NCBI GenBank assembly: GCA_038918115.1
Contig: JBCLAL010000008.1
Span: 73,072 to 137,071, forward strand
Length of the DNA stretch: 64,000 nucleotides
Source of the DNA: Pedobacter sp.
GTDB lineage: Bacteria; Bacteroidota; Bacteroidia; Sphingobacteriales; Sphingobacteriaceae
Reading direction: 5' to 3'
In this document: piece after piece, positions 1,639 to 48,698 of the stretch
Layout: each line of letters starts with the position of its first letter
How positions within the stretch are numbered: the stretch's first letter is position 1
Notes under the pieces: generated by a model
The model's database searches: none
What the model was told of the DNA's origin: nothing
The model's input: only the letters and a program-made list of their open reading frames with translations
Translations under genes and position numbers: made by a program

Positions 1639-1663
1639 AAACAGGAACGCTGGCATCTTGTTT
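1639..1663 (+). promoter_or_regulatory. AAAC-N15-TTGT motif, copy 1 (candidate alternative-sigma promoter)
   Basis: AAAC AGGAACGCTGGCATC TTGTTT, ending 31 nt before ATG 1695. Confidence 0.6.
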
Positions 1664-1694
1664 AGTAGCAGGACTTACCCTTTTAGCTTACGTT

Positions 1695-3179
1695 ATGCGC
1701 CGAATTAAACTTGTGTACCTGCTCTCTTTTCTCCTCATGTATGGCGCTATGCCCTTGTGTGCACAGCAGCTTGGCGGAGCCGCCAAGGAAGATTTCAAGA
1801 TCCGTATTGTTGCCGACAAGCTAAGTGATCCTTGGGAAATCAGCTATGGTCCGGATGGGCAGCTCTGGGTGACGGAGTCTAAGAACTATAAGGTTTGGCG
1901 GATAGATCCGGCAAGTGGAAAGCGGCAAGCGCTGCTGGATCTCAGCGAAGCGCGGGAGTTCCCGAGATATGATCAAATTGATGATAAAGAAGATGGTGGC
2001 AAACCCTGGCCGCAGGGTGGATTAATAGGCATGGCGCTGCACCCGGATTTGTTGAAAGGCAAACCTTATGTTTACCTAAGCTATATATACCGGTTTAAAA
2101 ATGCTGATGCGGTAGGTAACGGTTCAGAACCCGCATTTAAAGGTTACCATTTTGTAGGGCGACTGGTGCGCTATACCTATAGCCAGAAAGACCAGAAGCT
2201 GGCAGATCCATTGGTGCTCTGCGACAGCATACCGGCAAGCAGCGATCATAATGGCGGGAGACTGTTAATTGCTCCGGTGCAGGGTAAAAATTATCTGTAC
2301 TATAGTATTGGCGACATGGGAGCCGGGCAATTTGATAATGGTGGCCGGCAGAATAAGGCACAGGACAAGAACAGCTATGAGGGCAAGGTGCTGCGTCTCA
2401 ATACCGAACCGGACAAGGATGCGGATCCATTTGACCGCTGGATCCCCAACGACAATCCTTTTAATGGAAGCCGGCAAAACGCGGTATGGTCGCTTGGCCA
2501 CCGTAACCCGCAGGGACTTACCTATGCGCTTGTAAACGGTAAGGGTATGTTGTACAGCGTGGAGCATGGTCCTTATGGGGATGATGAGGTGAACCTGATT
2601 GAAAAGGGGCGGAACTATGGCCACCCGCTCATCATTGGCTATAATGACGGGAACTATGACGGTAAGGCTGCCTCGGTATCTGATCACCAGGAGATCCCTG
2701 GAAAGTGGCACACCAGTTATCCCCTGATTGTTTCAGAATCGGAAAATGCAAAGGCGATGGGCGCCGCATTCCGCGGACCCGAGTTCAGCTTTTATCCCAT
2801 TCCCGCAGATACGCTTGATCAGCTGTTCAATAATAAAGTTCAGGGTAAAGATCAGGAGTGGCAGGCATATGGGCCATCGAGCATTCAGCTATACACCAGC
2901 GATGGGATACCCGGATGGAAAAATTCTTTATTGATCACTACACTGAAAGGATCATCGCTGCTTCGGTTGAAGCTGGATGCGAGTGGAAAGATTTTAGATA
3001 AAGTACCCACGGTATATGTTAAAGGGAAAGTGCGGTATCGTGATCTGGCGATTTCTGCGGATGGTAAGAAAATCTATTTATCTGCGGATAATGCTGCGGT
3101 GAGTTCAGGGCCCTCTAAAGAGAATCCAGCGGAGGTTTCTTACAAGGGGTGTATACTCGAGTTAACGTACACGAGGTAG
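1695..3179 (+). CDS. PQQ-dependent sugar dehydrogenase (glucose/sorbosone dehydrogenase family), secreted
   Basis: Signal peptide; LSDPWEISYGPDG, GGLIGMALHP, HNGGRL, SLGHRNPQG, EHGP..DDEVN and RYRDLAIS motifs of the soluble PQQ beta-propeller dehydrogenases. Confidence 0.9.
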   Translation: MRRIKLVYLLSFLLMYGAMPLCAQQLGGAAKEDFKIRIVADKLSDPWEISYGPDGQLWVTESKNYKVWRIDPASGKRQALLDLSEAREFPRYDQIDDKEDGGKPWPQGGLIGMALHPDLLKGKPYVYLSYIYRFKNADAVGNGSEPAFKGYHFVGRLVRYTYSQKDQKLADPLVLCDSIPASSDHNGGRLLIAPVQGKNYLYYSIGDMGAGQFDNGGRQNKAQDKNSYEGKVLRLNTEPDKDADPFDRWIPNDNPFNGSRQNAVWSLGHRNPQGLTYALVNGKGMLYSVEHGPYGDDEVNLIEKGRNYGHPLIIGYNDGNYDGKAASVSDHQEIPGKWHTSYPLIVSESENAKAMGAAFRGPEFSFYPIPADTLDQLFNNKVQGKDQEWQAYGPSSIQLYTSDGIPGWKNSLLITTLKGSSLLRLKLDASGKILDKVPTVYVKGKVRYRDLAISADGKKIYLSADNAAVSSGPSKENPAEVSYKGCILELTYTR

Positions 3180-3252
3180 GGTTCTCTTATATTTAAATTT
3201 TTTTTTCAAAAAAATTACCACCATGTAATTTGTTCTGCCATACTTCTTAATA

Positions 3253-3267
3253 CTCGGAATGACCGAG
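3253..3267. promoter_or_regulatory. CTCGG-N5-CCGAG palindrome, candidate XRE operator (second copy 3753..3767)
   Basis: Perfect 5-5-5 inverted repeat, identical in both units, 17-18 nt upstream of each XRE start codon. Confidence 0.5.
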
Positions 3268-3285
3268 GATTAAAAATTAAATATT

Positions 3286-3534
3286 ATGTTAAAAATTTAT
3301 CCAGCCATCAAGTTCTTGAGATTGAAAAATGGTTTAACCCAACAACAAGTTGCAAACAAACTGAACTGTACAGTACCCGCCTACAGTAAATTGGAAACTG
3401 GCACAACGGAAATAACGCATGGCCTTTTAAAGCAGTTGTCGGTAATTTACGACATGAGTATTCGTGAGATCTATCAGCTTGCATTAGACCTCTCAAAAGA
3501 CGAGGATTACGAAAAGCCAGGTGATAAGAATTAG
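3286..3534 (+). CDS. XRE-family helix-turn-helix regulator, copy 1 (short C-terminus)
   Basis: IKFLRLKNGLTQQQVANKLNCTVPAYSKLETG is a classic HTH_3 pattern. Confidence 0.85.
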   Translation: MLKIYPAIKFLRLKNGLTQQQVANKLNCTVPAYSKLETGTTEITHGLLKQLSVIYDMSIREIYQLALDLSKDEDYEKPGDKN

Positions 3535-3583
3535 AGCATCATTGAAGGTATGAAGAAAGCATCTTGGTAAACTATGAAGTACT

Positions 3584-3641
3584 ATCGCCCTGGTTAGTGA
3601 AGGCATTCCAAATCGCCTAAACTAATCCGGCGATTTTTTTT
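3584..3641 (+). terminator. Long two-tier hairpin followed by a T-run, copy 1
   Basis: ATCGCCCTGGTTAG-tga-AGGC-loop-GCCT-aaa-CTAATCCGGCGAT followed by TTTTTTT. Confidence 0.65.
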
Positions 3642-3784
3642 AAGATGATCTTAAGATGTTTTTTAACGTACGCGTGTTAGGGTTCTCAAATTTTTAAAAT
3701 TTTTTTAAAAAAAATTACCACCATGTATTTTGTTCTGCCATACTTCTTAATACTCGGAATGACCGAGATTAAAAATCAAACATT

Positions 3785-4123
3785 ATGTTAGAAATTTATC
3801 CATCCATTAAGTACTTGAGATTGAAAAATGGTTTAACCCAACAACAGGTTGCAGACAAACTGAGCTGTTCAGTGCCTGCTTACAGTAAATTGGAAACTGG
3901 CGCAACAGACGTGACGCATACCCGTTTAACGCAGTTGTCGGCACTTTACAACATGATGATCTATCAGATCTATCAGCATGCAGAGCCAGTAGACAACTCA
4001 CTGGAGGAAACAAACAAAAAGCTTGCTAATAAAGTTCAAGAGCAGCAAGCAACCATTTCAGCGTTGCAGCGGAAGATCATTGAACTTTATGAAGAGAAGC
4101 ACCGTGATAAAGCAGCGTCATAA
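3785..4123 (+). CDS. XRE-family helix-turn-helix regulator, copy 2, with C-terminal coiled coil
   Basis: IKYLRLKNGLTQQQVADKLSCSVPAYSKLETG, then the heptad-like LANKVQEQQATISALQRKIIELYEE. Confidence 0.88.
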   Translation: MLEIYPSIKYLRLKNGLTQQQVADKLSCSVPAYSKLETGATDVTHTRLTQLSALYNMMIYQIYQHAEPVDNSLEETNKKLANKVQEQQATISALQRKIIELYEEKHRDKAAS

Positions 4124-4157
4124 TTAGATTTATACCAGGTCTTTATCATTAATCAAT

Positions 4158-4214
4158 ATCGCCCGGGTTAGTAGAGGCATTTCAAACAGCCTAAGCTAAT
4201 CCGGGCGATTTTTT
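4158..4214 (+). terminator. Long two-tier hairpin followed by a T-run, copy 2
   Basis: ATCGCCCGGGTTAG / CTAATCCGGGCGAT 14-bp stem with one G-T pair, inner AGGC/GCCT stem, T-run; sits between convergent genes. Confidence 0.7.
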
Positions 4215-4225
4215 CTAGACAATCT

Positions 4226-4570
4226 TTAAAACAACTCCTGCATGTCTCGGTCTGCAGTGTTAATTTTCTTTAGGAATTCATCGAATCCTGGTCCTTTCTG
4301 TTCACTGTACATACCGTATGCATCAGAGATGAAGGAAATACGCTCCTGATTATCTTTTAAGATATAGATCACGGCGTTATCTCCGGGATCTGAATGGCCT
4401 TCGAAACGGTATGTTTTAATAATAGTTAAATCTTCGGGACTATAGGTTTGGTCGATCTTATTACCTTTCATATGTCCGTCTTCCGTCATTGTCAATTCAT
4501 TATCGTAGCCCTTCTGCCTTAACTTTTCTAAAATCTGACTCAGGGTGTTCATTTCTGCTGGTTGTTCCAT
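4226..4570 (-). CDS. Conserved Bacteroidota hypothetical protein
   Basis: 114 aa with TLSQILEKLRQKGY and YRFEGHSDPGDNAVIY...DAYG motifs, recalled as a widespread uncharacterised family; function unknown. Confidence 0.75.
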   Translation of the reverse strand: MEQPAEMNTLSQILEKLRQKGYDNELTMTEDGHMKGNKIDQTYSPEDLTIIKTYRFEGHSDPGDNAVIYILKDNQERISFISDAYGMYSEQKGPGFDEFLKKINTADRDMQELF

Positions 4571-4593
4571 CTTTTCTTCGGTTTATGTAAATA

Positions 4594-4618
4594 AAACAAC
4601 AGCTGTTCTAAATAGTTT
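4594..4618 (-). promoter_or_regulatory. AAAC-N15-TTGT motif, copy 2
   Basis: Minus strand AAAC TATTTAGAACAGCTG TTGTTT, ending 23 nt before ATG 4570. Confidence 0.6.
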
Positions 4619-4634
4619 TTTAGGAAAGGGGCAC

Positions 4635-4667
4635 AAAAAAACAGCTGCCGTTTAGCGGCAGCTGTTT
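4635..4667 (-). terminator. Intrinsic terminator of metK
   Basis: AAACAGCTGCCG-TTTAG-CGGCAGCTGTTT perfect 12-bp stem with a minus-strand T-run. Confidence 0.85.
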
Positions 4668-4693
4668 ATATTAGTTAGAAAGTTGTTTTCTGG

Positions 4694-5944
4694 TTATAAT
4701 CCAAAAGCCGCTTTTACCTGGTCAACATAGTCCAGTTTCTCCCAAGTAAAAAGTTCCACCGTAACTACCTTTTCTTCACCATTAGGCGTTCTGAAGGTTT
4801 TGGTTACGGTTTCTGGTTTTCTGCCCATATGTCCATAAGCAGCAGTTTCGCTATAGATTGGATTTCTAAGTTTAAGTCTTTGCTCGATGAAATAAGGGCG
4901 CATATCGAAGATGCCTTCAACAATTTTCGCGATTTCACCATCAGTCTTAGATACCTTTCCAGTACCATAAGTATTGATGTAGATACCCATAGGTTTGGCA
5001 ACGCCAATGGCATAACTTACCTGTACCAGAATTTCATCAGCCACACCTGCGGCAACCAGGTTTTTAGCGATATGGCGAGTTGCGTATGCTGCGGAGCGGT
5101 CTACCTTGCTTGGGTCTTTACCTGAAAAAGCCCCACCACCGTGCGCGCCTTTACCGCCGTAAGTGTCTACAATGATTTTTCTTCCCGTTAAGCCGGTATC
5201 TCCGTGTGGCCCACCAATTACAAACTTGCCTGTAGGGTTGATGTGATATTGGATCTGATCATTAAAGAGGTGTGCGTACTGCGGATTCTTGCTGATAATT
5301 CTCGGAATGAGAATATTCACCAGGTCTTGCTTGATCTTATCCAGCATTGCTGCCTCTGCATCAAAATCATCGTGCTGTGTAGAAATCACGATGGCATCAA
5401 TTCTAACAGGGCGATTGTTATCATCATATTCCAGGGTAACCTGTGATTTTGCATCCGGTCGCAAATAAGTGATCTCGTCCATTTCGCGTCTAAGCAGTGC
5501 CAGCTCTTGTAAAAGCTTATGGGAAAGATCCAGTGCTAATGGCATGAAATCCTCTGTTTCATTGCTAGCATAACCGAACATCATACCCTGATCTCCAGCA
5601 CCCTGATCCTCCTTATTGGATCTGTCTACGCCTTGATTAATGTCTTGAGATTGTTCATGAATTGCCGAAAGAATTCCGCAGGAGTTTGCCTCAAACATGT
5701 ATTCGCTCTTGGTATAACCTATTTTTCTGATGACGTCGCGCGCTATCTGCTGTACGTCCAGGTAGGTTTTTGATTTTACCTCGCCAGCTAAAATAACCTG
5801 ACCTGTGGTAACAAGGGTTTCGCAGGCGACCTTAGAATCAGAATCGAATGCAAGAAAGTTATCAATGAGTGCGTCTGATATTTGATCTGCTATTTTATCA
5901 GGATGACCTTCAGAAACAGATTCTGATGTAAATAAGTATGACAT
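4694..5944 (-). CDS. metK: S-adenosylmethionine synthetase
   Basis: [35 protein letters not shown] signatures. Confidence 0.99.
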
Positions 5945-6024
5945 TCTAAATAATTTATTAACAATTAAAAATTAAATAAAATGGATGATGATCCTGGTCA
6001 AACAGTCAGTAAAAGGAAGTGTAT

Positions 6025-6095
6025 GGTGGTTAGCACTTTTTTTTACGTGGTTGCAATCCCGCTATCGTTAAATAGCATCTACAAATCAGTCCACT
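6025..6095 (-). ncRNA. SAM-II (long-loop variant) riboswitch upstream of metK
   Basis: Minus strand GTGG-A-CTGATTT...GCTAT-ttaacg-ATAGC...GATTGCAA-CCAC-GTAAAAAAAAGT-GCTAA. This matches the SAM-II core (P1 GTGG/CCAC, UGAUUU, UUGCAA, 3' GCUAA) with an inserted hairpin; it lies directly after a promoter and before metK. Confidence 0.8.
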
Positions 6096-6104
6096 TTAAG
6101 CGCC

Positions 6105-6135
6105 CAAAAATAGGATATAAATTCATATAGTCAAA
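6105..6135 (-). promoter_or_regulatory. Bacteroidota primary-sigma promoter for the riboswitch/metK transcript
   Basis: Minus-strand TTTG (6135..6132), 19 nt spacer, TATTTTTG (6112..6105), matching the -33/-7 consensus TTTG-N19-TAnnTTTG. Confidence 0.75.
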
Positions 6136-6174
6136 AAATATCAATTATTTTGCAACTTCTTTAAAAAGCTCACT

Positions 6175-7065
6175 TTGTCTAAAACGAACATCTTATTCAT
6201 CATCAATCCGATATCCGGGGGGCGCGACAAGACTAATATTCCAGGGCTGATCGACAGGTACTTGGACAAGTTGCGTTTTAATGCCAGTTACCGCTTTACC
6301 GAGTATGCCGGTCATGGTGCCGAGCTCGCGGCAGCAGCAGCACAGCAGCATTTTGATGTTGTTGTTGCCGTTGGGGGCGATGGAACGATAAATGAGGTGG
6401 CGACCGCAGTAATGGCACAGGGTAAGGTGCTTGGTATTTTGCCTTTTGGCTCGGGCAACGGACTGTCGCGCTATCTTAAAATTCCGATGAACACCGTCAA
6501 GGCTATAAAAGTGCTCAATGGGCAACATGTAAGGCGTATTGATACGGCCGTATTTAACGGTAAACGATTTTTTAACATGGCAGGAATGGGATTCGATGCC
6601 CACATCAGCTCGATTTTTGCAGGAAATAAGAAGCGTGGCTTGTCGGGCTATGTAAAACTGGGATTGAAGGAGATGTTGAACTATAAACCGGCAACTTATG
6701 AAATCGAGGTGGATGGTAAGACTATGGAAAGGAAGGCTTTTGTGGTTAGCATTGCAAACAGCTCCCAGTATGGGAATAATACATACATTTCACCTGAGGC
6801 CTCTATATCGGATGGCTTGTTGGATGTATGTATTGTGAAGTCCTTCTCCTTACTGTTGCTGCCAAAGCTGGCTTATCAGATGATAAGTGGCAGGACACAT
6901 CGAAGCGATCTCGTGGAGATCATCCGAGGGCGCTCCATAAAGATTGTACGCGATCACGCCGCACCGATACATATTGATGGGGAACCCTTTCAGATGGACA
7001 GAGAGATTGAAATTAGTATTGCACCTTTATCTTTAAATATAATAACACCAGCATATGAAGCCTAA
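6175..7065 (+). CDS. Diacylglycerol-kinase-family lipid kinase (YegS/BmrU-like)
   Basis: IINPISG, VGGDGTINEV, LPFGSGNGL, GMGFDA, ANSSQYG, IDGE motifs; TTG start. Confidence 0.92.
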   Translation: MSKTNILFIINPISGGRDKTNIPGLIDRYLDKLRFNASYRFTEYAGHGAELAAAAAQQHFDVVVAVGGDGTINEVATAVMAQGKVLGILPFGSGNGLSRYLKIPMNTVKAIKVLNGQHVRRIDTAVFNGKRFFNMAGMGFDAHISSIFAGNKKRGLSGYVKLGLKEMLNYKPATYEIEVDGKTMERKAFVVSIANSSQYGNNTYISPEASISDGLLDVCIVKSFSLLLLPKLAYQMISGRTHRSDLVEIIRGRSIKIVRDHAAPIHIDGEPFQMDREIEISIAPLSLNIITPAYEA

Positions 7066-7405
7066 GAAGAAGTCATTGGAGGACCTTGGTGGAATCATGT
7101 ATTCTACCAATCCGGACTTTGATTTTCCGGAAGAAGAGATTATTGAAACAACTGTTCCCAACAAGCAACAGGATCTGCGTGTAAGTCTGGATCGTAAGAA
7201 CAGGGGTGGAAAAGCCGTAACGCTGATCACGGGGTTCAGGGGCAGCGACGATGCCCTGCAACAATTAGGGAAGATGCTGAAGACAAAATGTGGGGTTGGA
7301 GGGGCTGCCAAGGATGGTGAGATTATCATCCAGGGTGATTTCCGGGATAAGGTTTTAGCGTTGCTGCTGAAGGAAGGCTTCAAAGTTAAAAAAGCGGGTG
7401 GTTAA
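7055..7405 (+). CDS. yciH: Translation initiation factor SUI1 family protein
   Basis: RKNRGGKAVTLITG, LKTKCGVGG, IIIQGDFRD motifs. Confidence 0.93.
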   Translation: MKPKKKSLEDLGGIMYSTNPDFDFPEEEIIETTVPNKQQDLRVSLDRKNRGGKAVTLITGFRGSDDALQQLGKMLKTKCGVGGAAKDGEIIIQGDFRDKVLALLLKEGFKVKKAGG

Positions 7406-7459
7406 AGCATTTGGTGAAATAAATACCTGAATCTGACTTCGCTTTCGTCTTTAAGTATT

Positions 7460-7467
7460 TAGCTTTG
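7460..7467 (+). promoter_or_regulatory. -7 element (TAGCTTTG) for pckA
   Basis: Matches TAnnTTTG and overlaps the ORF-track TTG start, so the real start is downstream. Confidence 0.55.
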
Positions 7468-7485
7468 GGCTTTAAACCAAATATT

Positions 7486-9090: not shown

Positions 9091-9145
9091 AGCACGAAAT
9101 TTGGGTTAAAATTTGCATTTCATTTTTTTTTTAGTTTTAATTGTG

Positions 9146-10892: not shown

Positions 10893-10901
10893 AAAAAGGC
10901 A

Positions 10902-37250: not shown

Positions 37251-37340
37251 GTAGATGCCTGTTCGCAACCAAGGCATAAGGCTTAAAAACAGGAAAACAA
37301 TTCCCTAAGGCCAGCGGTTAGTAAAAGAAAAATCCTAATT

Positions 37341-37649
37341 ATGAAAAGTCTATTCAAACCGGTTTTAGCATTTTCCTTTTTGACCCTGTCTTTAGCTGCC
37401 TGTTCTTTTGGCGATAAAGGTGATGAGTCTGTCGCGGATTCTGTAAGACTAGATACTACGCAGGCGCCGGCCATGAATTCGGCCAGCGGGCAAAGCCCCT
37501 CGGGTTCAGACTCAGGTGCAGCAGATACAACTGACCTCAAAGAAGCCAATATCAACACCTTTCAACGTGATAGCGTAAGCAAAGACCGTTCTGCAAATGG
37601 TGGTGCTGATGGTATAAAACAGAACTCAACACAGGGTTTAAAGAAATAA
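37341..37649 (+). CDS. Small low-complexity lipoprotein
   Basis: Lipobox LAAC followed by a D/S/G/A/T-rich, probably disordered chain. Confidence 0.75.
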   Translation: MKSLFKPVLAFSFLTLSLAACSFGDKGDESVADSVRLDTTQAPAMNSASGQSPSGSDSGAADTTDLKEANINTFQRDSVSKDRSANGGADGIKQNSTQGLKK

Positions 37650-38257: not shown

Positions 38258-38350
38258 GGTTGTTCGATTTAGATTATATCGTTTTGATAGAACAAAGGTA
38301 CCAACACACTCGTTTGCAAGCGTTGATGTATGTTAATAAATTAACATTGC

Positions 38351-38941
38351 TCAGACTTTGAAGTGTTTATGTGCTAAGTCTTTACGTACACGGCTTAATG
38401 ATTCCGGGGTAATGCCAAGGTAAGAAGCGATCATCCACTGTGGTACCCTTAAGGTCAGGTTTGGATATAACTTAACGAAATCGACATAACGCTCCTCCGC
38501 AGTGGCTGCCAGCAGCAGATTAATCCGGCGCTGCATAAAGCGAATTGCATTATTAAGCATCGTTGTATTCAGCAGGTTAAATTCCGGTGCATGTGCCGCG
38601 GCTGTGCAGAAAAAATCCTTAGGAATAATCAATGCTGTTGTGGGCTCAATAGCATCCATATTGAAATCAGACGCTTCATTGTTCAGCAGTCCGTTCCGGT
38701 CGGAAATCCACCAGCCTTCCGGTGCAAACTGGATGATGTGTGTTTTGCCCTTCTCATCTACCGAGTAGCTGCGCATCAATCCGTCAAGAATGAAGTAGGT
38801 CCTTGTGCTGGTTTCACCCTGGGAGAGTACCAGTTCGTTTTTCAAGAAGGTTGTTGTTTTTAGATGACTTGCAACAAGGTCGAACTGTTCGTCGGTAATC
38901 GACATCCTTTGCTGCAGGTAGGCTTTGAATTTATCAAGCAT
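38351..38941 (-). CDS. Crp/Fnr family transcriptional regulator
   Basis: cNMP-binding region (L.QGE...YFILDGLMRSY) and C-terminal PQWMIASYLGITPESLSR HTH. Confidence 0.93.
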   Translation of the reverse strand: MLDKFKAYLQQRMSITDEQFDLVASHLKTTTFLKNELVLSQGETSTRTYFILDGLMRSYSVDEKGKTHIIQFAPEGWWISDRNGLLNNEASDFNMDAIEPTTALIIPKDFFCTAAAHAPEFNLLNTTMLNNAIRFMQRRINLLLAATAEERYVDFVKLYPNLTLRVPQWMIASYLGITPESLSRVRKDLAHKHFKV

Positions 38942-39166: not shown

Positions 39167-40354
39167 TTATGGTTCCATGAGACCGACGGTTCCACCTACC
39201 CAATCAAAGTCCTTATTGTAACGCACACCGATCATCTTTCCACGACTTAACCTCGCCAGGTTGATGGCCAGTATCGGTTCTTCATTGTCTGGCCAGAGAT
39301 ACATCAGCCGCAATTCTGCCTTCACACCGCCTGTTGGTGATTCTACGATAGGCTCATAGGTCACTTTCTCCTGCAACAGCCAATTCTCCGGGTCTTCGAT
39401 CTTTTCGATATCGGCCTTGGTCACATCAATGATCACGCCCATACCGGCGAAAGAAAACAGCGGCTTCAGCACGTAATTCTCGAGGTCCGGTGGCAGGGTT
39501 TTTAGCTCATGCAGAAAGAAGCTCTCGGGAACATACTTGCTCTCTAAATATGGCATGGTGTACTTACTAACCCGGTAAAACCAGTTCGGATGGGTCATCC
39601 ACTCTACATCAATGATCTCCCGGGGATCAAAACACTCCTTAAAAAGACTGAAGTCGTCCTTAACCTCATCAAAAATCAGGCGGTTATAGATCCGCTTGAT
39701 CCTTACATTCACACCATTTTCGCGATAACAGATGTGGTTGTCCTCCCTGAAAATATCCTCGATGCCCACGATCTTTATACCCAGGTGTTTGGCCGTGATG
39801 TAAAAATCGATCGCCGTTTTCTGTTTGTGTACATCAAGATCCATCAGCACCACCTGCTTTGGCGGATGGTCGCCTACAATCATCTTCCGCAGCAACTCGA
39901 TATAAGAACTGTCGTTTAAGCCATTGAAGTAGGGGGTAAGCTTAGGATCCAGCTCATAAACTTCCTTGTAGAGCGCTGCAAGGTGCATCTGAAAACCATA
40001 GAGGGAAGGAAATCCCTGCATTTCAATAAGTTTCGGTGCCAGCTTGCCCTCAGCATCTTTAGTAATGCCGAAGTCGAGGGTAAGAAAATGCGGGTGACTA
40101 TTTTCAAATGGAACCTCCCACTCAAAAGGAATGGCCTTTTTAGTTAAGGTCTTAAATCCGGGACGCCTGATGATGTTTACAATTTCTTCACCTGCTTTAA
40201 TCAATTCGTCTCGCAGATCATTTGGTATAAACACAGGTGTCTCCGCAAGTCTGAACTCAATAGGAGGGAAGCCCTCGTCTGCTTTGTTCAGAAATGCTTC
40301 GTATTTCGCAGCGGTAAAGCCAGCGTTGAAACGCTCCCGGTAGGTGTTAATCAT
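39167..40354 (-). CDS. Circularly permuted ATP-grasp-type ligase (glutathione/GSP synthetase-like)
   Basis: LDFG...KLIEMQGFP, IYNRL, YVLKPLFSFAG.GV, WLLQEKV, ELRL elements typical of circularly permuted ATP-grasp amidoligases; family recognised by eye. Confidence 0.65.
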   Translation of the reverse strand: MINTYRERFNAGFTAAKYEAFLNKADEGFPPIEFRLAETPVFIPNDLRDELIKAGEEIVNIIRRPGFKTLTKKAIPFEWEVPFENSHPHFLTLDFGITKDAEGKLAPKLIEMQGFPSLYGFQMHLAALYKEVYELDPKLTPYFNGLNDSSYIELLRKMIVGDHPPKQVVLMDLDVHKQKTAIDFYITAKHLGIKIVGIEDIFREDNHICYRENGVNVRIKRIYNRLIFDEVKDDFSLFKECFDPREIIDVEWMTHPNWFYRVSKYTMPYLESKYVPESFFLHELKTLPPDLENYVLKPLFSFAGMGVIIDVTKADIEKIEDPENWLLQEKVTYEPIVESPTGGVKAELRLMYLWPDNEEPILAINLARLSRGKMIGVRYNKDFDWVGGTVGLMEP

Positions 40355-40356
40355 AG

Positions 40357-41190
40357 TTATGCTTCTTGTAAGGTGTTTGCAACGACACTGGAGATGAAGT
40401 TCGGCAGAATCACCTGCTGTGTCAGGGAAATGCGCTCAGGATCCTCCACACTATCCAGCATGTCATAATACTTTTCTTCACCGTGATTGTCGATGATGGA
40501 CTTCTTCTTATCTTCTTTAAGCAAGTGCATGCGCATACCGGTTGGGTCTGCTTCAGGGTGAAACTGGGTACCCAGAATTTCATCCGTAAAACGGATCGCC
40601 ATAATGCAGCGCTCCAGGTCAACATTCGGTCTTTCCTTTTCTAACGCGAGTATACTCGCTCCAAAACTTTCAAAAGCAGCCTCATCGGGTTCTATCACCT
40701 GCCAATCGCGACTGTCTACCGAATAGAAAGGATTGGTCAAGCCGCTAAAGGCTGGTTCTTGCTCCCCTGCTTCGGTAAGCGTGATCGGAAAAATGCCAAA
40801 GGCATTAGACTTACGCTCTGTCACGTTGCCAAGCTTAAATTTGCGGCAGGCCAGCTGAAAGGAATGACAGATTAGAAAAACAAACTTCTTCTCTGCTTCA
40901 TTGCTGGCATTGTGCTGGTGTATCTGTTCCAGAAGATCAAAAAATCTGTTCTCCCATTCCTGGCCTTCCCCATCATACGGACTTCCCGGGCCGCCTGTAG
41001 AAATGTACAGGTGGTAATTCAGGTCTGGTAATTCAGCTTTCCGTCTCAAGTCAAAGATCTCGAGTGAAAACGCTATACCATGATCCTCCTGGTACTTGCC
41101 CAGTATTTCTATAATCCCCCGCATGCCCTGGTTGGGCGAGCCATTATTCATATCTATAATGGCAACTTTCATCTTCTTATTATTATCCAT
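40357..41190 (-). CDS. Class I glutamine amidotransferase-like protein
   Basis: TGGPGSP oxyanion loop, ICHSFQ nucleophile elbow, QFHPEAD (Cys-His-Glu triad). Confidence 0.88.
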   Translation of the reverse strand: MDNNKKMKVAIIDMNNGSPNQGMRGIIEILGKYQEDHGIAFSLEIFDLRRKAELPDLNYHLYISTGGPGSPYDGEGQEWENRFFDLLEQIHQHNASNEAEKKFVFLICHSFQLACRKFKLGNVTERKSNAFGIFPITLTEAGEQEPAFSGLTNPFYSVDSRDWQVIEPDEAAFESFGASILALEKERPNVDLERCIMAIRFTDEILGTQFHPEADPTGMRMHLLKEDKKKSIIDNHGEEKYYDMLDSVEDPERISLTQQVILPNFISSVVANTLQEA

Positions 41191-41192
41191 TT

Positions 41193-42299
41193 TTACTGTT
41201 TCGCGCCTATAAGCGTCTGGCTGGTTATAAAGTCTACAACCGATTCCAGCTTGCCGGTCTGTTCAAAGACTGCTAATTGCCGGTCTGCACCTGTTCCGTT
41301 TTGCAGCATCTTATGCACGTAGTTGATGTCATCCCGGCAACCCAGTTCATCAACAACATCATCCACAAAGTCAAGCAGTTCCAGGATCAGGTTGCGGCAG
41401 TTAACCTCCATTTCCTTGCCAAAGTCTATCAGGTTGCCGTCAATCCCGTATCTCGCCGCACGCCATTTGTTCTCGTTGATCAGCGCCCGGGAGTAGTTTA
41501 TGAAAGACATATTCCGCAAGCGTAGCTGGTATAACTTCGCACAAAGGGCCTGAAAAAGCGCTGTAAGCGCCATTGTCTCATCGATCAGCATCGGACAATC
41601 ACATATCCTGAACTCAATGGTCTGGAAAAAAGGGTGTACCCTGATGTCCCACCAGATCTTCTTCGCATTATCAATACAGTTCGTCTTGATGAGTAATTTG
41701 ACATAACTATCATAATCCTCTATGCTGTTGAAGATGTCAGGAATTCCCGTACGGGGAAACTTATCAAAGATCTTGGTCCGGAAGGACTTGTATCCGGTAT
41801 TCCTGGATTCCCAGAAAGGCGAATTCGTAGATAATGCAAATACGTGCGGCAGAAAGTAGCGCACCTGGTTGGCAATATGTACCGCAAGTTCCCTGGATTG
41901 GAAACCCACATGCACATGCAGTCCAAAGATCAGGTTTGAACGCGCAGCTTCCTGAAGCTCATTAACAATTTCATTATAACGCGGATGTTCTGTAATTAAT
42001 TGTTTCTCCCAGTGTGAAAAAGGGTGGGTGCCTGAGGCACCTATCCTTAATCCCTGTTCGCCGGCAAGCTGCGATACGGTGTACCGCAGCTGCGAGATTT
42101 CTTTCCGCGCCTGTGTCGTGTCGGTGCAGATGCCCGTTCCAACTTCCACCACAGCCTGGTGCATTTCTGCCTTTACCTGGTCCTTATGGATCTTTTGCGC
42201 AGCTTCAACAATTTTCTGGTCATGCGAAGTGAGCTCCCGGGTAACCGGATCAACAACCATGTACTCTTCTTCGATACCAAGTGTAAACTCGTTTTTCAT
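41193..42299 (-). CDS. Carboxylate-amine ligase, YbdK/GCS2 family (glutamine synthetase fold)
   Basis: TLGIEEEY, VEV.TG, GTHPF, FGLHVHVG, ALS.NSPFW, WWDIR.HP...TIEFRICD. Confidence 0.93.
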   Translation of the reverse strand: MKNEFTLGIEEEYMVVDPVTRELTSHDQKIVEAAQKIHKDQVKAEMHQAVVEVGTGICTDTTQARKEISQLRYTVSQLAGEQGLRIGASGTHPFSHWEKQLITEHPRYNEIVNELQEAARSNLIFGLHVHVGFQSRELAVHIANQVRYFLPHVFALSTNSPFWESRNTGYKSFRTKIFDKFPRTGIPDIFNSIEDYDSYVKLLIKTNCIDNAKKIWWDIRVHPFFQTIEFRICDCPMLIDETMALTALFQALCAKLYQLRLRNMSFINYSRALINENKWRAARYGIDGNLIDFGKEMEVNCRNLILELLDFVDDVVDELGCRDDINYVHKMLQNGTGADRQLAVFEQTGKLESVVDFITSQTLIGAKQ

Positions 42300-42318
42300 G
42301 ACATCCGCTTAATAGCCG

Positions 42319-43602
42319 TTATTTTTTACTGCTGCTTTCTTTTTTTGCTTTTGGCGCGGCTGCTTTAGCTGGGGCAGACTTAGCCGGCTTGGCCGCTTTC
42401 TCTGCCTTAGGCTGCGCTGCGCCTGCTTTCGCTGCTGGTGCCTTCTTTGCTGCTGGTGCTGCATCTTCAGCTTTAGAATCTTCGCCGGCTTTAGCACCTT
42501 GCTCCGCTTTAGTGGCAGATTTTGGCTTGCTTGCCTTTGTCGCTTTGGCAGTGCCGCTGGTCTTAGCCGAAGCTTTTTTCTGAGGTTCCAATTCTACCGG
42601 TGCAGCCAGCTCTTCTGTTACCGGAATTTCACCCGCTGCTTCAATCTTAATTTTCGAACCTGCTTTTACCGATCCTTTCACATATTCACCCCAGGTCAGG
42701 TTATCCTGATTTGGCTTGTGTGCCCTGGCACGTTCAATCGCATACAGCGCCGAATGTTCAACAACCCAGTTGAAGTTCTCTTCCCCAACGCTGGTCAGCT
42801 CCGCATCAGGTGCCGGATTGCAGAAGTCGATCGCATAAGGTATACCATCGCGTACCGCAAATTCAACGGTGTTGAAATCGTAACCCAATGACTGGTTCAG
42901 CTTAATCACATAATCGTGTATGGTTTGCAGCAATTCTTCGCTTGAAGGTCCTTTATCTACGGCATAGCGCAAGTGGAAAGGATTGTTTGGCTCATACTGC
43001 ATAATCCGCACATACTTACCGCCAATGCAGTAGCAGCGATAATATTCTTCAAACTTAATCTCTTCCTGCAGCATCATCACCAGCTGTCCGGTTTCCTTGT
43101 GCTTTTCAAAGAATTCTTCCTTGTCGCTGATCTTGTAAACGTCTTTCCAACCCCCGCCATCAAAAGGCTTCATATAGGCCGGGAAGCCCGTATATTCAAA
43201 AATAGCATCCCAGTCGAGCGGATATGCAAGGTTGCTGAAAGACTCGTCGCTTGTATCGGTCGGAAGCTCCCTGGAAGGGATCAGCGTTGTCTTTGGTACC
43301 GGGATACCAAGCTTCACAGCAAGCGCATTGTTGAAGAACTTCTCGTCAGCGCTCCACCAGAAAGGATTATTGATTACGGCTGTTCCGGTGATTGCAGCAT
43401 TTTTCATTGCCGAACGGTAAAAGGGAACACCCTGGGAAATACGGTCGAGGATCACGGCATAATCCAGTGGCTCAGCCTGTAATACCTTGTCAAGGCGCAC
43501 AAACTCGGCCTCAAACTCGCCCGCTGCCAGCTCATTAACACGTTTTACAAAAGCTTCAGGAAAAGATCGCTCCTGGCCAAATAAGATACCAATTTTTTTC
43601 AT
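42319..43602 (-). CDS. RimK-like ATP-grasp ligase with an Ala/Lys/Pro-rich C-terminal tail
   Basis: VINNP...DEK, P.PKT, YMKPFDGGGWKDV, LQEEI, VEFAV.DG.PY.IDF.NP; the last about 115 aa are low complexity. Confidence 0.85.
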   Translation of the reverse strand: MKKIGILFGQERSFPEAFVKRVNELAAGEFEAEFVRLDKVLQAEPLDYAVILDRISQGVPFYRSAMKNAAITGTAVINNPFWWSADEKFFNNALAVKLGIPVPKTTLIPSRELPTDTSDESFSNLAYPLDWDAIFEYTGFPAYMKPFDGGGWKDVYKISDKEEFFEKHKETGQLVMMLQEEIKFEEYYRCYCIGGKYVRIMQYEPNNPFHLRYAVDKGPSSEELLQTIHDYVIKLNQSLGYDFNTVEFAVRDGIPYAIDFCNPAPDAELTSVGEENFNWVVEHSALYAIERARAHKPNQDNLTWGEYVKGSVKAGSKIKIEAAGEIPVTEELAAPVELEPQKKASAKTSGTAKATKASKPKSATKAEQGAKAGEDSKAEDAAPAAKKAPAAKAGAAQPKAEKAAKPAKSAPAKAAAPKAKKESSSKK

Positions 43603-43619
43603 CGTCTATGAATTAGTTG

Positions 43620-44324
43620 TTATAGTTTAGATAGATAGTCCGGTAACATCTCCCGCCAGATCGGCCAGTCGTGGTCGGCGTCGGGCCGGATGTCAAGCCA
43701 ATGGGAGATACCCTTCTTATGTAAGATTTCTGATAATTGTTCATTGTAGGGCCTGCAGATGTCACGGTCGGAAGTGCCAAGCACGATCTTCATGTTCCAG
43801 AGCTCCGGGTTATTCGAATCCGGCAGGTAATCTACCGGGTTATTAAAGTACACATCTTCATTATAAAAGCCGTCCAGCTGCCCGCTGATATCAAAGGCGC
43901 CACTCAGGCTGAACATATGCGACACCAGCCATGGATAGCGAAAGGCAAAATTCGCAGCATGATAACCACCAAAGCTGCAACCTGAGGTAATTACCCGATG
44001 GTGACCAGTCTCGTGCTGTGCACGGGGCACCAGTTCTTCCAGCAGCATCCGGTCATACCAGGTATGATTCTTAATCCGCTGCTCGGGAGACACCGCTTTG
44101 TTGTAAAAACTCAGGCTGTCAACGCCATCCGGACAATAGACTTTGACTTTCCCGGAATTGATGAAATACTGTATGCTTTCGATAAGTTTAAAGTCTTTGT
44201 TCTCAAAGTAGCGGCCCTGACTGGTAGGAAATAGAAGAAGCGGGTAGCCGCCGTAGCCAAAGGTCAGCATGTCGATGTCCATACTCAAGTTTGGACTGTA
44301 CCATTTGATGTATTCCTCCTGCAT
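43620..44324 (-). CDS. Alpha/beta-hydrolase esterase 1
   Basis: GCSFG nucleophile and DHDW catalytic His; LFPTSQG oxyanion region. Confidence 0.88.
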   Translation of the reverse strand: MQEEYIKWYSPNLSMDIDMLTFGYGGYPLLLFPTSQGRYFENKDFKLIESIQYFINSGKVKVYCPDGVDSLSFYNKAVSPEQRIKNHTWYDRMLLEELVPRAQHETGHHRVITSGCSFGGYHAANFAFRYPWLVSHMFSLSGAFDISGQLDGFYNEDVYFNNPVDYLPDSNNPELWNMKIVLGTSDRDICRPYNEQLSEILHKKGISHWLDIRPDADHDWPIWREMLPDYLSKL

Positions 44325-44364
44325 GAAAGTAATTTAGATAATAAGATACGAAGAACTACTCTTT

Positions 44365-44388
44365 AACAAGTATCCTATTCTTTTGTTG
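44365..44388 (-). promoter_or_regulatory. (C)AAC-N15-TTGT motif, copy 3, for the ligase operon
   Basis: Minus strand CAAC AAAAGAATAGGATAC TTGTT, ending 40 nt before ATG 44324. Confidence 0.55.
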
Positions 44389-44418
44389 CTAAAATCAGTT
44401 GATATTTAAAAAAATAGG

Positions 44419-44441
44419 AAACATTTTACGGGGAGCCTTTG
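44419..44441 (+). promoter_or_regulatory. AAAC-N15-TTGT motif, copy 4, for the divergent esterase
   Basis: AAAC ATTTTACGGGAGCCT TTGT, ending 14 nt before ATG 44456. Confidence 0.55.
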
Positions 44442-44455
44442 TAAATAGATAAACC

Positions 44456-45265
44456 ATGAAGATCGCCGAGCTTAAAATCACTACGCACACCTTGCAATCC
44501 CATTGGCTGAAAAGGCCTGTGGAACTCATTGTTTATGCGCCGGTGGGCATTCCGGCAAATATCCCGATGAACCTGCTTTTGCTTAATGACGGACAGGATG
44601 CAGAAGGCTTGCAACTGGAGGAAGCACTGCGCGACCTTTATGCCAACCAACGTATTGATCCGGTGGTGCTGGTGGGCATTAAGTGCTCAGCAGAACGCAT
44701 ACAGGAATATGGTGTTGCCGGCCGACCTGATTTTCAGAACCGGGGTAGCAAAGCTGACCTTTATAATGAGTTTATCGTAACGGAGCTGCTGCCGCAGTTG
44801 GAAAAACTGCTGAAGATCAAGCTTCAGGGCAAGAAAGGCTTCGTGGGTTGTTCCCTTGGCGGCTTAAGCGCTCTGGATATCTGCTGGCGCAATGATAAGA
44901 TATTTGATGTGGTTGGTGCTTTTTCCGCTTCTTTCTGGTGGCGCAAAAGAGACCTTGAAGATGGCTACACGCCCGATGACAGGATCATGCACCAGGTGAT
45001 CAGGGAAAGGGGGGATAAACCGGAGCTCCGGTTCTGGCTGATGACCGGCACGGAGGATGAAACTGCCGACCGTGATGGTAACTTCATCATCGACTCTATA
45101 GACGACACCATCGACATCATTAAGTCCCTGCTGGATAAAGGATATTCACGTCCGCATGATGTTTTCTATTATGAGATGGTCGGTGGAAAACATGAAGTTG
45201 ACACCTGGGCCAAAGCGATGCCGGCCTTTATCTGTTGGGCATTCCCAAGAACGGCAGTCTTTTAG
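44456..45265 (+). CDS. Alpha/beta-hydrolase esterase 2 (Fes/putative esterase family)
   Basis: LLLNDGQD, GCSLGG nucleophile, SASFWW, G..DE, GKHE...W. Confidence 0.88.
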   Translation: MKIAELKITTHTLQSHWLKRPVELIVYAPVGIPANIPMNLLLLNDGQDAEGLQLEEALRDLYANQRIDPVVLVGIKCSAERIQEYGVAGRPDFQNRGSKADLYNEFIVTELLPQLEKLLKIKLQGKKGFVGCSLGGLSALDICWRNDKIFDVVGAFSASFWWRKRDLEDGYTPDDRIMHQVIRERGDKPELRFWLMTGTEDETADRDGNFIIDSIDDTIDIIKSLLDKGYSRPHDVFYYEMVGGKHEVDTWAKAMPAFICWAFPRTAVF

Positions 45266-45314
45266 TATCAAGATATTAGCCCATTTCATAGGCGGTTTTT
45301 ACGATTAAAAACCT

Positions 45315-45322
45315 TATCTTTG
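45315..45322 (+). promoter_or_regulatory. -7 element (TATCTTTG) for typA
   Basis: Canonical Bacteroidota -7 box 22 nt before ATG 45345. Confidence 0.7.
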
Positions 45323-45344
45323 CGCCAAAATACAGGCGCATTTT

Positions 45345-47150
45345 ATGCAAAAAATTAGAAACATAGCTATTATAGCACACGTCGATCACGGTAAAACCAC
45401 CTTGGTTGATAAAATTTTACACACTTGTTCAATTTTTCGTGACAACGAGCAGACAGGTGAATTGATTCTGGATAACAATGATCTGGAACGCGAACGAGGT
45501 ATTACCATCGTTTCTAAAAACGTTTCCGTACGGTACAAAGACGTTAAAATCAATATCATAGATACTCCTGGTCACGCGGATTTCGGCGGTGAGGTAGAAA
45601 GGGTATTAAAAATGGCCGACGGTGTATTGTTGCTATGTGACGCTTTTGAAGGTGCCATGCCACAAACCCGTTTCGTAACACAAAAAGCTTTGGCTCTAGG
45701 TCTTAAGCCTATTGTTGTTGTAAATAAAGTAGATAAAGAAAACTGTCGCCCTGAAGAGGTTTATGAGCAAATCTTTGAATTGTTCTTCAACCTTGAGGCT
45801 ACTGAAGATCAGTTAGACTTCCCTGTAATCTATGGTTCATCTAAACAAGGATGGATGAGCACAGACTACAAACAACCAACTACCGACCTGTTCCCATTAT
45901 TAGACGCTGTTGTTGCTTCAATCCCAGCTGCACCAACCAATGAAGGAACACTTCAAATGCAAATCACCTCTTTAGATTATTCTTCTTTCGTAGGTCGTAT
46001 TGCAATTGGTCGTGTACACCGCGGTACCATTAAAGAAAACCAACCAGTTACGTTGATCAAACGTGATGGTAAAATGGTTAAGTCAAGAGTAAAAGAACTA
46101 TATACATTTGAAGGTTTAGGTAAGATCAGAGCTACAGAAGTAAGTTCAGGTGATATCTGTGCTGTTGTTGGTATCGATGGTTTCGAGATCGGTGATACTA
46201 TTGCAGATTTCGATGCACCAGAGCAACTGCCTGTAATCAGCATTGATGAGCCAACCATGAACATGTTGTTCACCATCAATAACTCTCCTTTCTTCGGTAA
46301 AGAAGGTAAATTCGTTACCTCTCAGCGTATGAAAGAGCGTCTGTACAAAGAGATGGAGAAAAACCTTGCCTTGAAAGTTATTGAGACTGAATCTCCTGAT
46401 TCTTACTTGGTATACGGAAGGGGTATTCTGCATTTATCTGTATTGATCGAAACCATGCGTCGTGAAGGTTACGAGCTTCAGGTAGGTCAGCCACAGGTTA
46501 TCATCAAAGAAATTGACGGTAAAAAATGTGAGCCTATTGAAACTTTGATCGTTGATGTACCGGGTGAAGTTGCTGGTAAAGTAATTGAGCTGGTTACGCA
46601 ACGTAAAGGTGAGTTGTTGATCATGGAGCCAAAAGGCGATCTTCAACACTTAGAGTTTGATATCCCTGCACGTGGTATCATCGGTTTGAGAAACAACGTA
46701 CTTACAGCTACTGCTGGTGAGGCGATCATCGCACACCGTTTCAAAGCTTACGAGCCTTGGAAAGGTGTAATCCCTGGCCGTTTAAGTGGTGTAATGATCT
46801 CTATGGATAAAGGTACAACTACTGCTTATTCAATTGACAAACTTCAGGATAGAGGCCGTTTCTTCGTTGATCCGGGTGTAGATATCTATGAAGGTCAAAT
46901 TGTTGGTGAGCACATCCGTGATAACGACTTAGTGGTGAACATTGTAAAAGGTAAGGCTTTAACGAATATGCGTGCATCTGGTACAGATGATAACACCCGT
47001 ATTGCACCAGCTATCAAATTCTCACTGGAAGAAGCTATGGAGTACATCCAGTCTGACGAATACATTGAGATAACTCCGATCAGCATGCGTTTACGTAAAA
47101 TTCACTTAACTGAGAATGCGCGTAAAATCAACGCTAAAAACTACCAATAG
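45345..47150 (+). CDS. typA: Translational GTPase TypA/BipA
   Basis: [45 protein letters not shown]. Confidence 0.99.
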
Positions 47151-47195
47151 GATTTAGCTATTACTTCTTCAAAGAAGTATAAGTATCATATATGG

Positions 47196-47226
47196 AATGC
47201 CGGCAGTAAATACTGCCGGCATTTTG
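47196..47226 (+). terminator. Intrinsic terminator after typA
   Basis: AATGCCGGCAGT...ACTGCCGGCATT stem followed by TTTG. Confidence 0.85.
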
Positions 47227-47288
47227 TTTACATTGGGCTAATTTTTCTGGCCTGAGATTTTCATAATTTTGCATCAAAATATAAGATC

Positions 47289-48005
47289 ATGGAATCATTA
47301 AGCGGAAAAAACGCAATCATAACAGGAGCCGGAAAGGGCATAGGCAGGGCAGTAGCCATTGAGCTTGCCAATGAGGGTGTAAACATCGGATTAATGGCCA
47401 GAACTGCTGCCGATCTGGAGGCAGTGGCTACCGAACTGCAGGCTTATGGCGTTAAAACAGCCATCGCGACAGTTGATGTTTCGAATATGGAAGAAGTGAA
47501 TGCAGCAGTAGCTAAGGTGAAGACTGAATTGGGTGCTATAGACATCCTGATCAACAATGCCGGTATTTCTTCATTCGGAAAGTTCATGGAACTGGAGCCT
47601 GCAAGATGGGAAGAGATCGTAAAAGTAAATCTTTTCGGTCCTTACTACATGACCCGTGCGGTACTGCCAGACATGATAGAAAGCAAATCGGGCGACATCC
47701 TGAACATCTCTTCAACTGCAGGTAAAAACGGTGCTGCGGTAACCAGCGCATACAGTGCCTCTAAATTTGCGTTGATCGGTATGTCAGAATCATTAATGCA
47801 GGAAGTTCGTAAGCACAACATCCGTGTGAGCACCTTGCTTCCAAGTACGATCGCTACAGATATGGCGAAAGATCTTAAACTTACAGACGGAAATCCAGAG
47901 CGGGTAATGCAACCTGAGGACTTCGCCGAATTTATGGTGTCTCAACTGAAGCTGAACCGACGCGTTTTTGTGAAAGAAGCAGGTTTGTGGTCAACAAACC
48001 CCTAA
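47289..48005 (+). CDS. Short-chain dehydrogenase/reductase (3-ketoacyl-ACP-reductase-like)
   Basis: [17 protein letters not shown]; TAATTTTG -7 box at 47264..47271. Confidence 0.92.
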
Positions 48006-48021
48006 ACATTACATAAAACAG

Positions 48022-48052
48022 AAAAAGGGGAAATATAGATTTCCCCTTTTTT
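48022..48052. terminator. Bidirectional terminator
   Basis: AAAAAGGGGAAAT-ATAG-ATTTCCCCTTTTT between convergent genes. Confidence 0.88.
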
Positions 48053-48073
48053 TATGTGCCTCTATCAGGCTGA

Positions 48074-48637
48074 TCAGGCATGTTGCCCATCATGTTCGCC
48101 TTCGGCAAATTCTTCAACCATTTTATCGTTGAAAGCAGGCAGGTCGTCCGGACTTCTGCTGGTCACCAATCCCTGGTCAACCACCACTTCTTCATCCACC
48201 CATTCTGCACCGGCATTAACCAGATCTACCTTCACGGTCTGGAATGAGGTTAGCTTACGACCTTTTACCACATCTGCGGTAATCAGCACCTGTGGTGCAT
48301 GGCAAATTGCTGCCACTGGTTTTCCGGCGGCAAAGAAGGCTTTTACGAGGCTGATTGCTTCATCACTGCGCCTTAAGGAATCAGGGTTTAACACACCACC
48401 AGGTAAAAGTAAACCATGGTAGTCTTCTGCTTTCACGTCAGCAACGGTTTTGTCTACATCAAGCTCAATTGTCCAGTCCTTGTCGCCTTTCATAGCCTGG
48501 ATCTTTCCCGAGTCTGTAGAGATGATATGTACGGTTGCACCTTCTTCTTTCAGGCGTTGTACCGGACTGGTAAGTTCCGATTCTTCAAATCCGCTTGCCG
48601 CAAGCACCGCAATGTTCTTATTATTTAATTGTCCCAT
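48074..48637 (-). CDS. pfpI: PfpI/DJ-1 family protein (type 1 glutamine amidotransferase domain)
   Basis: GFEESEL, LLLPGG, AAICHAP, LVTSRSPDDL. Confidence 0.93.
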   Translation of the reverse strand: MGQLNNKNIAVLAASGFEESELTSPVQRLKEEGATVHIISTDSGKIQAMKGDKDWTIELDVDKTVADVKAEDYHGLLLPGGVLNPDSLRRSDEAISLVKAFFAAGKPVAAICHAPQVLITADVVKGRKLTSFQTVKVDLVNAGAEWVDEEVVVDQGLVTSRSPDDLPAFNDKMVEEFAEGEHDGQHA

Positions 48638-48673
48638 CGTTTTTGTATTTAGGTTAAAAACTTAGTGGTATAA

Positions 48674-48698
48674 AGACAAGTCAGGAAGAGGATTGTTT
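48674..48698 (-). promoter_or_regulatory. AAAC-N15-TTGT motif, copy 5, for pfpI
   Basis: Minus strand AAAC AATCCTCTTCCTGAC TTGTCT, ending 36 nt before ATG 48637. Confidence 0.6.

Follow-up and report, generated by a model that had tools for sequence, protein, structure and literature searches.

A short sequence with the core AAC-N17-GTT, or AAC-N18-GTT, lies a few tens of nucleotides upstream of genes in a 64-kb stretch of DNA (hereafter the window; contig C8, positions 73072-137071) from a 4.02 Mb genome of the Sphingobacteriaceae, close to Pedobacter. We consider this motif to be the -35/-10 promoter of an alternative sigma factor of the extracytoplasmic function (ECF) type, serving a general-stress regulon of ~120 promoters, and put the probability of this reading at roughly 0.8. 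The observations on which it rests are enrichment, position, directionality, conservation, regulon content and sequence identity with mapped promoters of Bacteroides thetaiotaomicron, and from these we infer that RNA polymerase would start at the motif in this organism also. The initial annotation of the window had singled out five sites of identical spacing, described as AAC-N15-TTGT, and had proposed that they were promoters of an alternative sigma factor for general stress. That proposal is borne out by the fixed position of the motif, its tolerance of both N17 and N18, its directional flanks, the depletion of TAnnTTTG boxes, the gene content and the match to B. thetaiotaomicron. The core has had to be redrawn, however, as AAC-N17-GTT, the regulon extends to ~120 promoters and the promoter class proves to have been published already, under the name PM2.

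Counted over the whole window, exact AAC-N15-TTGT is no more frequent than chance would have it (12 matches against 11.6 expected, with at least 12 in 46 of 100 shuffles). When only the stretch 12-65 nt ahead of start codons is counted, however, three sites are found at N15 against ~0.3 at control spacers. For the genome as a whole, ~3,277 genes were called by a simple codon-usage open reading frame (ORF) caller, and the background for motif counts was provided by the same half-sites at other spacer lengths. Upstream of these genes AAC-N15-TTGT occurs 96 times in the sense and 78 times in the antisense orientation, against ~27 at other spacers. When all pairs of 3-mers separated by 8-25 nt were scored in upstream DNA, the top dyad was AAC-N17-GTT (167 sites against 50 expected, z = 16.6). 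Below it ranked its own sub-patterns, the N18 form and a sigma-54-type dyad, TGG-N8-TTG, that is likewise enriched upstream of genes genome-wide (70 observed, 31 expected). Enrichment across the genome is strong, whereas the count for the window taken whole is not raised.

In the same 12-65 nt zone, the genome holds 138 sites at N17 and 81 at N18 compared with 35.5 at other spacers, an excess that amounts to ~150 gene-site pairs at some 120 distinct sites. The excess of AAC-N17-GTT is missing from coding DNA and from the regions between convergent genes, being confined to non-coding DNA that holds promoters, and genome-wide the distance from the 3' end of the motif to the ATG peaks at 21-30 nt. 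Only when position is considered does the motif rise far above chance, and the regulon comprises roughly 120 sites, not five.

The consensus that emerges is (t)(t)naAAAC(a)(a)-N13-(t)TGTT(w)(w). The nucleotide preceding AAC (-1) is A in 67-73% of sites and the one before that (-2) is A in 44%, whilst GTT is preceded by T in 60% and by C in 8%. Cores with a single mismatch are not enriched, both halves being equally strict, and refinement of a position weight matrix left the core unrelaxed, all seed sites having perfect cores. In tandem intergenic regions the outer flanks have a direction: when A before AAC is set against T after GTT, discordant sites split 30 to 10 (p = 0.002). There is also a purine peak 9-10 nt downstream of GTT (0.68 and 0.62 against ~0.46). 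The spacer is not entirely rigid, as orthologous sites (those of pfpI and of an ECF operon described below) switch between N17 and N18 while the spacer sequence drifts. TAnnTTTG boxes are rarer at motif genes (11% against 24%, p = 0.016) and show no fixed offset to the motif. The idea that the TTG of TTGTT is the -33 element of a sigmaA promoter was ruled out because these boxes are both unpositioned and depleted.

Known ECF promoters have AAC at -35, a spacer of 16-17 nt and (C/T)GT(T/C) at -10, as in those of Escherichia coli sigmaE, EcfG and SigR/SigH. The layout seen here, AAC followed by 16 nt and TGT(T/C), fits this ECF (group 4) architecture. On the promoter reading, the sigma-4 domain would read the AAC at -35 and the sigma-2 domain the (T)GTT at -10, transcription would begin 9-10 nt after GTT to give leaders of ~15-20 nt, and the regulon covers oxidative, desiccation, stationary-phase and DNA-repair functions.

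The closest published counterpart comes from B. thetaiotaomicron, where transcript starts were mapped by Ryan et al. (2020; PMC7366714). Their PM2 motif is near-palindromic, centred at -30 and -10 and found at 5.7% of primary starts; oxidative-stress genes are over-represented behind it, and it is active in stationary phase (PMC7366714). More recently, the regulon of the ECF sigma factor SigH-1 (BT1197) has been described as having a -30/-10 box with TGTT at -10, and CRISPR interference with sigH-1 changed 31 genes significantly, with members of the iModulon down-regulated (BtModulome 2025; PMC12596196). The published MEME consensus is RAAMAAW...TWTGTTWWW. In the -50 to +1 sequences listed for SigH-1 iModulon promoters (PMC12596196, Table S9), AAC-N17/18-GTT is present in 8 of 13, and the mapped start lies 8-10 nt after GTT. 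From the Table S9 sequences and the published consensus, therefore, PM2 and the present motif are one and the same promoter type. The motif is the Sphingobacteriaceae counterpart of PM2, and the promoter class itself was already known.

The two systems have in common AAC(A)-N15/16-(T)GTT with its choice of N17 or N18 spacers, target genes that include YtxH, Dps/ferritin-like proteins, OmpA, alpha-amylase and acid and oxidative stress genes, and an ECF sigma factor of the same subfamily (37-40% identity here). They differ in that the present organism is an aerobic soil bacterium of the order Sphingobacteriales with three paralogous SigH-1-like sigmas against the one named in B. thetaiotaomicron, in that its regulon contains catalase, Ku, PfpI, GSDH and many small acidic proteins, and in that this promoter also precedes a second ECF/anti-sigma operon. 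The mapped starts and the genetics belong to B. thetaiotaomicron, whereas starts here are predicted from sequence.

To our knowledge, Bacteroidota have neither RpoS nor SigB, and their general stress response is poorly understood beyond one gut species. What is new here is a testable regulon of ~120 promoters in a soil member of the Sphingobacteriaceae, linked by sequence to PM2/SigH-1. The promoter class reaches well beyond Bacteroides, and the motif offers a simple annotation rule for stress genes, small unknown proteins included, in Pedobacter and its relatives.

Pfam matches at the 40 best sites include catalase, Ku, DAGK/YegS, transaldolase, alpha-amylase, a second GSDH, an MBL-fold hydrolase, a GAF-PAS-HisKA kinase, DUF3072, YqcI/YcgG, YtxH, a YdaD-like SDR, the PNPOx-like 'general stress protein 26' (GSP26), Usp, DUF4142 and DUF892; the window contributes PfpI and the GCS2 operon. 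There is strong overlap between these genes and the SigB, RpoS and EcfG regulons, and for that reason the label 'general stress' is apt. Behind many of the best sites lie ORFs of 60-130 amino acids that encode acidic or low-complexity proteins without a Pfam match (for example at C7:119073, C3:434, C9:93604, C2:550726 and C2:374139), some of them alike by eye. The small acidic proteins behind the motif are candidate new stress proteins.

Among more distant systems, the nearest in appearance are the EcfG (ECF15) general-stress promoters of Alphaproteobacteria, GGAAC-N16/17-CGTT. These share AAC at -35, GTT at -10 and the AAC-N17/18-GTT spacing, together with targets such as catalase, Ku, DUF892/YciF-like, DUF4142-like and small hydrophilic proteins, and EcfG, too, is the sigma for general stress in bacteria that have neither RpoS nor SigB. 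The flanks are unlike, however, A standing at -1 and T before GTT here where EcfG promoters have GG-AAC and C-GTT, and the candidate sigmas are not EcfG orthologues; a PhyR-NepR partner switch was not noticed, though no search was aimed at it. Because the phylum differs, we regard the likeness as convergence in role. The SigR/SigH (ECF12) promoters of Actinobacteria, GGAAT-N18-GTT, also have a GTT -10 element after a pyrimidine and thiol/oxidative-stress targets such as thioredoxin, and SigH_actino is the second-best NCBIfam match, far below the cut-off, for the two SigH-1-like copies scanned. Their -35 element differs from the AAAC seen here, and no ZAS-type anti-sigma adjoins the SigH-1-like genes. 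The housekeeping sigmaABfr promoters of Bacteroidota, with TTTG at -33 and TAnnTTTG at -7, resemble the motif in their distance from the start codon and in their short leaders; they are unrelated in sequence, and per gene the two classes are nearly mutually exclusive. The ECF motif SM6 of Flavobacterium psychrophilum was considered as the same regulon and rejected, since its CGT -10 box and its type IX secretion system genes are different.

The genome has ~25 ECF genes. To find the relatives of SigH-1 among them, the BT1197 protein was recovered from gut-metagenome contigs via the published single guide RNA target, the upstream sequence being that of the published promoter bar one base. Its homologues are three paralogous ECFs with 37-40% identity over their full length (C1:267533-268066, C6:107037-107567 and C2:548780-549307). 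The C2 copy sits amid five motif-bearing genes (C2:545879-551809), and several genes of this cluster encode small acidic proteins. BT1197 itself has a sigmaA-like promoter in B. thetaiotaomicron. In other genomes, a SigH-1-like ECF is present in G004 (same genus), G087, G055 and G019 and missing from G029, whilst G030 has a copy broken by two in-frame TGA codons plus a 43%-identical homologue; presence or absence fits that of the motif in five of the six, G055 being the exception. The candidate sigmas match NCBIfam models of the SigK, SigH_actino and SigY types, all below cut-off. We favour the SigH-1-like ECFs as readers of the motif, at about even odds. A second large sigma, RpoS/RpoD-like (C2:358813-359682), was rejected as the reader, since its orthologue is missing from 18 same-genus genomes in which the motif is kept. 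It has regions 2-4, scores below every NCBIfam cut-off, is strain-specific and may be part of a mobile or defence element.

A rival for the role of reader is encoded about 14.6-16 kb past the 3' end of the window, in an operon (C8:151666-153072) with the order of a SigK-RskA (ECF19-like) module: an ECF sigma (C8:152524-153072; PF04542 and PF04545), then an anti-sigma (151666-152520; PF10099, RskA_C). The closest solved structure to this sigma is Mycobacterium tuberculosis SigK (4nqw), and its NCBIfam SigK subfamily score is 116 against a cut-off of 226. Were it the main reader, the operon would form an autoregulated switch, in which the membrane anti-sigma is inactivated under stress, releasing the sigma to transcribe its own operon together with the regulon. 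It is the sole one of the ~25 ECFs to have a perfect site in promoter position (AAAC-N17-GTT, 26 nt before a TTG start), a site kept in 16 of 17 same-genus orthologues at N17 or N18 with a free spacer and missing from most paralogues, and the gene is missing from G029, G030 and G055, none of which shows motif enrichment. G004, however, which shows motif enrichment and a conserved pfpI site, has no orthologue (the best match, at 41%, is a fasciclin-linked paralogue), and when the ECF genes of G004 were scanned for a copy under its own control, the one site to emerge was weak and belonged to an unrelated ECF. In other genera of the Sphingobacteriaceae the C8-type ECF gene abuts lipA and has no site, and the protein is only 30% identical to BT1197; the gene next to it is non-syntenic even in G003. 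We therefore think it unlikely that this sigma is the main reader. With the SigH-1-like sigmas as the favoured readers, its operon would be a regulon member, the second tier of a cascade in which they turn it on, or else a second reader, at similarly low odds. The sigma is narrowed to four candidate genes, and as both kinds of candidate are ECF-type the main conclusion does not depend on the choice between them.

Rather than a promoter, the motif might be a 23-bp near-palindromic operator, bound over the core promoter region by a global transcription factor acting as a dimer. Its inner flanks are symmetric (AACAA...TTGTT), its fully palindromic forms are the most enriched, both half-sites are strictly required and, among 178 short divergent intergenic regions, 25 have one central site 12-65 nt from both starts. 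Against this, the half-sites are 20 bp apart and orthologous sites tolerate a +1 spacer, the outer flanks are directional with a purine peak at fixed distance downstream, and the sigmaA boxes expected under such control are depleted and have no fixed position. The B. thetaiotaomicron starts, moreover, are locked 8-10 nt after GTT with expression dependent on an ECF sigma, and the architecture equals that of known ECF promoters; an operator is accordingly improbable. That the sites are what a pattern of low information would yield by chance in AT-rich intergenic DNA, as the window-wide count and a core of just six specified bases might suggest, is refuted by the spacer controls: the excess is four-fold, spacer-specific and of the z-score given above, site positions are conserved across dozens of genomes, and we regard this explanation as scarcely credible. 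The ECF promoter reading has evidence against it too. Transcript 5' ends were sought, and related sequence was found only in relatives' DNA and in soil metatranscriptome contigs. The core is self-complementary, with equal strictness in its two halves, and as sense and antisense counts are similar in tandem regions the sequence would also suit a symmetric protein-binding site. A few members of the regulon resemble housekeeping genes (thioredoxin, cspA-like, mnmE and queG, named by eye). The three SigH-1-like genes all lack a perfect motif at their own promoters, G055 combines a 68%-identical SigH-1-like ECF with no motif enrichment in 319 kb, and the conserved site at the SigK/RskA-type ECF makes the sigma assignment ambiguous.

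The symmetry of the motif raises a further idea about the ECF promoter. Since the -35 (AACA) and -10 (TGTT) elements are reverse complements of one another at a 17-nt spacing, one site could fire both ways, the same ECF holoenzyme using either strand of a single 23-bp site. The short divergent regions with a single central site number ~2 at control spacers, so that shared sites such as those in C7:66358-66434, C2:173896-173972 and C1:569237-569316 are about ten-fold above control. The first of these regions belongs to a thioredoxin/aminotransferase pair. We put forward intrinsic bidirectionality only tentatively, as a minority expectation; if true, one site would switch on two divergent stress genes together.

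Beyond this genome, 80 Pedobacter loci have 57 sites at N17 and 51 at N18 against ~24, and G004 has 20 against 8. Enrichment is weak in another Sphingobacteriaceae genus and not seen in two distant Bacteroidia families (G029 and G030); genome by genome, it is clear in G004, weak in G087, possible at N18 in G019 and absent in G029, G030 and G055. Judged by these counts, the promoter class is widespread but not universal in Bacteroidia.

Table 1. Motif sites in the window, with predicted transcript starts and the genes behind them (window coordinates)
Feature	Position	Strand	Sequence or evidence
Site 1, GSDH promoter	1639..1663	+	AAACAGGAACGCTGGCATCTTGTTT; AAC 1640-1642, GTT 1660-1662; exact match
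Predicted transcript start, site 1	about 1671-1672	+	
Pyrroloquinoline quinone (PQQ)-dependent glucose/sorbosone (GSDH-family) dehydrogenase gene, predicted regulon member	1695..3179	+	PF07995, E = 1.5e-52
Site 2, hypothetical-protein promoter	4594..4618	-	AAAACTATTTAGAACAGCTGTTGTTTT; AAC 4617-4615, GTT 4597-4595; exact match
Predicted transcript start, site 2	about 4586-4585	-	
114-aa protein, predicted regulon member	4226..4570	-	no Pfam match
Site 3, ligase-operon promoter	44365..44387	-	AACAAAAGAATAGGATACTTGTT, perfect palindrome; exact match
Predicted transcript start, site 3	about 44356-44355	-	
Five-gene operon behind site 3	39167..44324	-	Pfam; read as one operon because the genes are tightly spaced
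Operon gene: esterase	43620-44324	-	
Operon gene: 427-aa ATP-grasp-like protein		-	
Operon gene: GCS2, glutamate-cysteine ligase family 2	41193-42299	-	
Operon gene: class-I glutamine amidotransferase (GATase)	40357-41190	-	
Operon gene: 395-aa protein of unknown function		-	
Site 5, variant ECF-type pfpI promoter	48674..48698	-	AAC-N16-TGTC; AAC 48697-48695, TGT 48678-48676
pfpI, DJ-1/PfpI family, predicted regulon member	48074..48637	-	PF01965, E = 2.6e-55
Additional weaker candidate	37295..37319	+	AAAACAATTCCCTAAGGCCAGCGGTT, N18, score 3.3
yceI site	38291..38315	-	AAC-N18-GTT overlapping perfect sigmaA -7 box TACCTTTG at 38293-38300

The sites of the window are listed in Table 1. Of the five originally proposed, those of the GSDH gene, the hypothetical protein and the ligase operon are exact; that of pfpI fits AAC-N15-TTGT but is a TGTC variant, and at the esterase the spacing had been miscounted. 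Site 1 (N17, flank score 4.8) ends 32 nt before the ATG at 1695, and the second GSDH paralogue, at C1:630715, has the motif too. At site 2 (N17, score 4.8) GTT ends 24 nt before the ATG at 4570. Site 3 (N17, score 4.1) ends 40 nt before the ATG at 44324; it is kept as GCAACAAAAG-N-GTT in five Pedobacter orthologue loci (L014, L033, L045, L061 and L076) and missing in most of the others. The operon behind it may specify a pathway for a small gamma-glutamyl compound. The pfpI site overlaps the stop codon (48681) of the upstream hydrolase gene and is kept as AAAAC(A)-N15/16-yTGT(C/A) upstream of ~35 pfpI orthologues in same-genus genomes and Pedobacter loci, both boxes being conserved and the spacer sequence free; its TGTC we take to match the RpoE-type -10 element. 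The weaker candidate, which did not feature in the initial annotation, lies 21 nt before an ORF of 102 amino acids (37341-37649) without a Pfam match.

Two further sites of the initial annotation belong to the ordinary sigmaABfr class. Upstream of the divergent esterase (the gene at 44456), the site at 44419..44441 (+) has its TTGT at N16, lacks GTT and does not match the pattern. The upstream sequence ...GAGCCTTTGTA aligns with the canonical sigmaA box TACCTTTG that is kept in most of 80 Pedobacter orthologue loci, so that AGCCTTTG is best read as a decayed sigmaA -7 box. At yceI, described as a +1-spacer variant, AAC-N18-GTT is indeed present, with a perfect TAnnTTTG box inside it, and the statement that these genes have no clear TAnnTTTG box is contradicted there by the conserved TACCTTTG. 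In yceI orthologues the TAnnTTTG box is kept (TAATTTTG or TAACTTTG), AAC-N17/18-GTT occurring in only about half; the site is most probably a housekeeping promoter of the ordinary kind and may be a dual one. Between yceI and a neighbouring Crp/Fnr-family gene (38351-38941) lies another element, TTAACATACATCAACG (38321-38336, -), which recurs in conserved form, (T)TCTTA(T/C)CATACATCAATG, ahead of yceI in ~70 Pedobacter loci. The adjacent Crp/Fnr-family regulator probably has its operator here, and the element is distinct from the stress motif.

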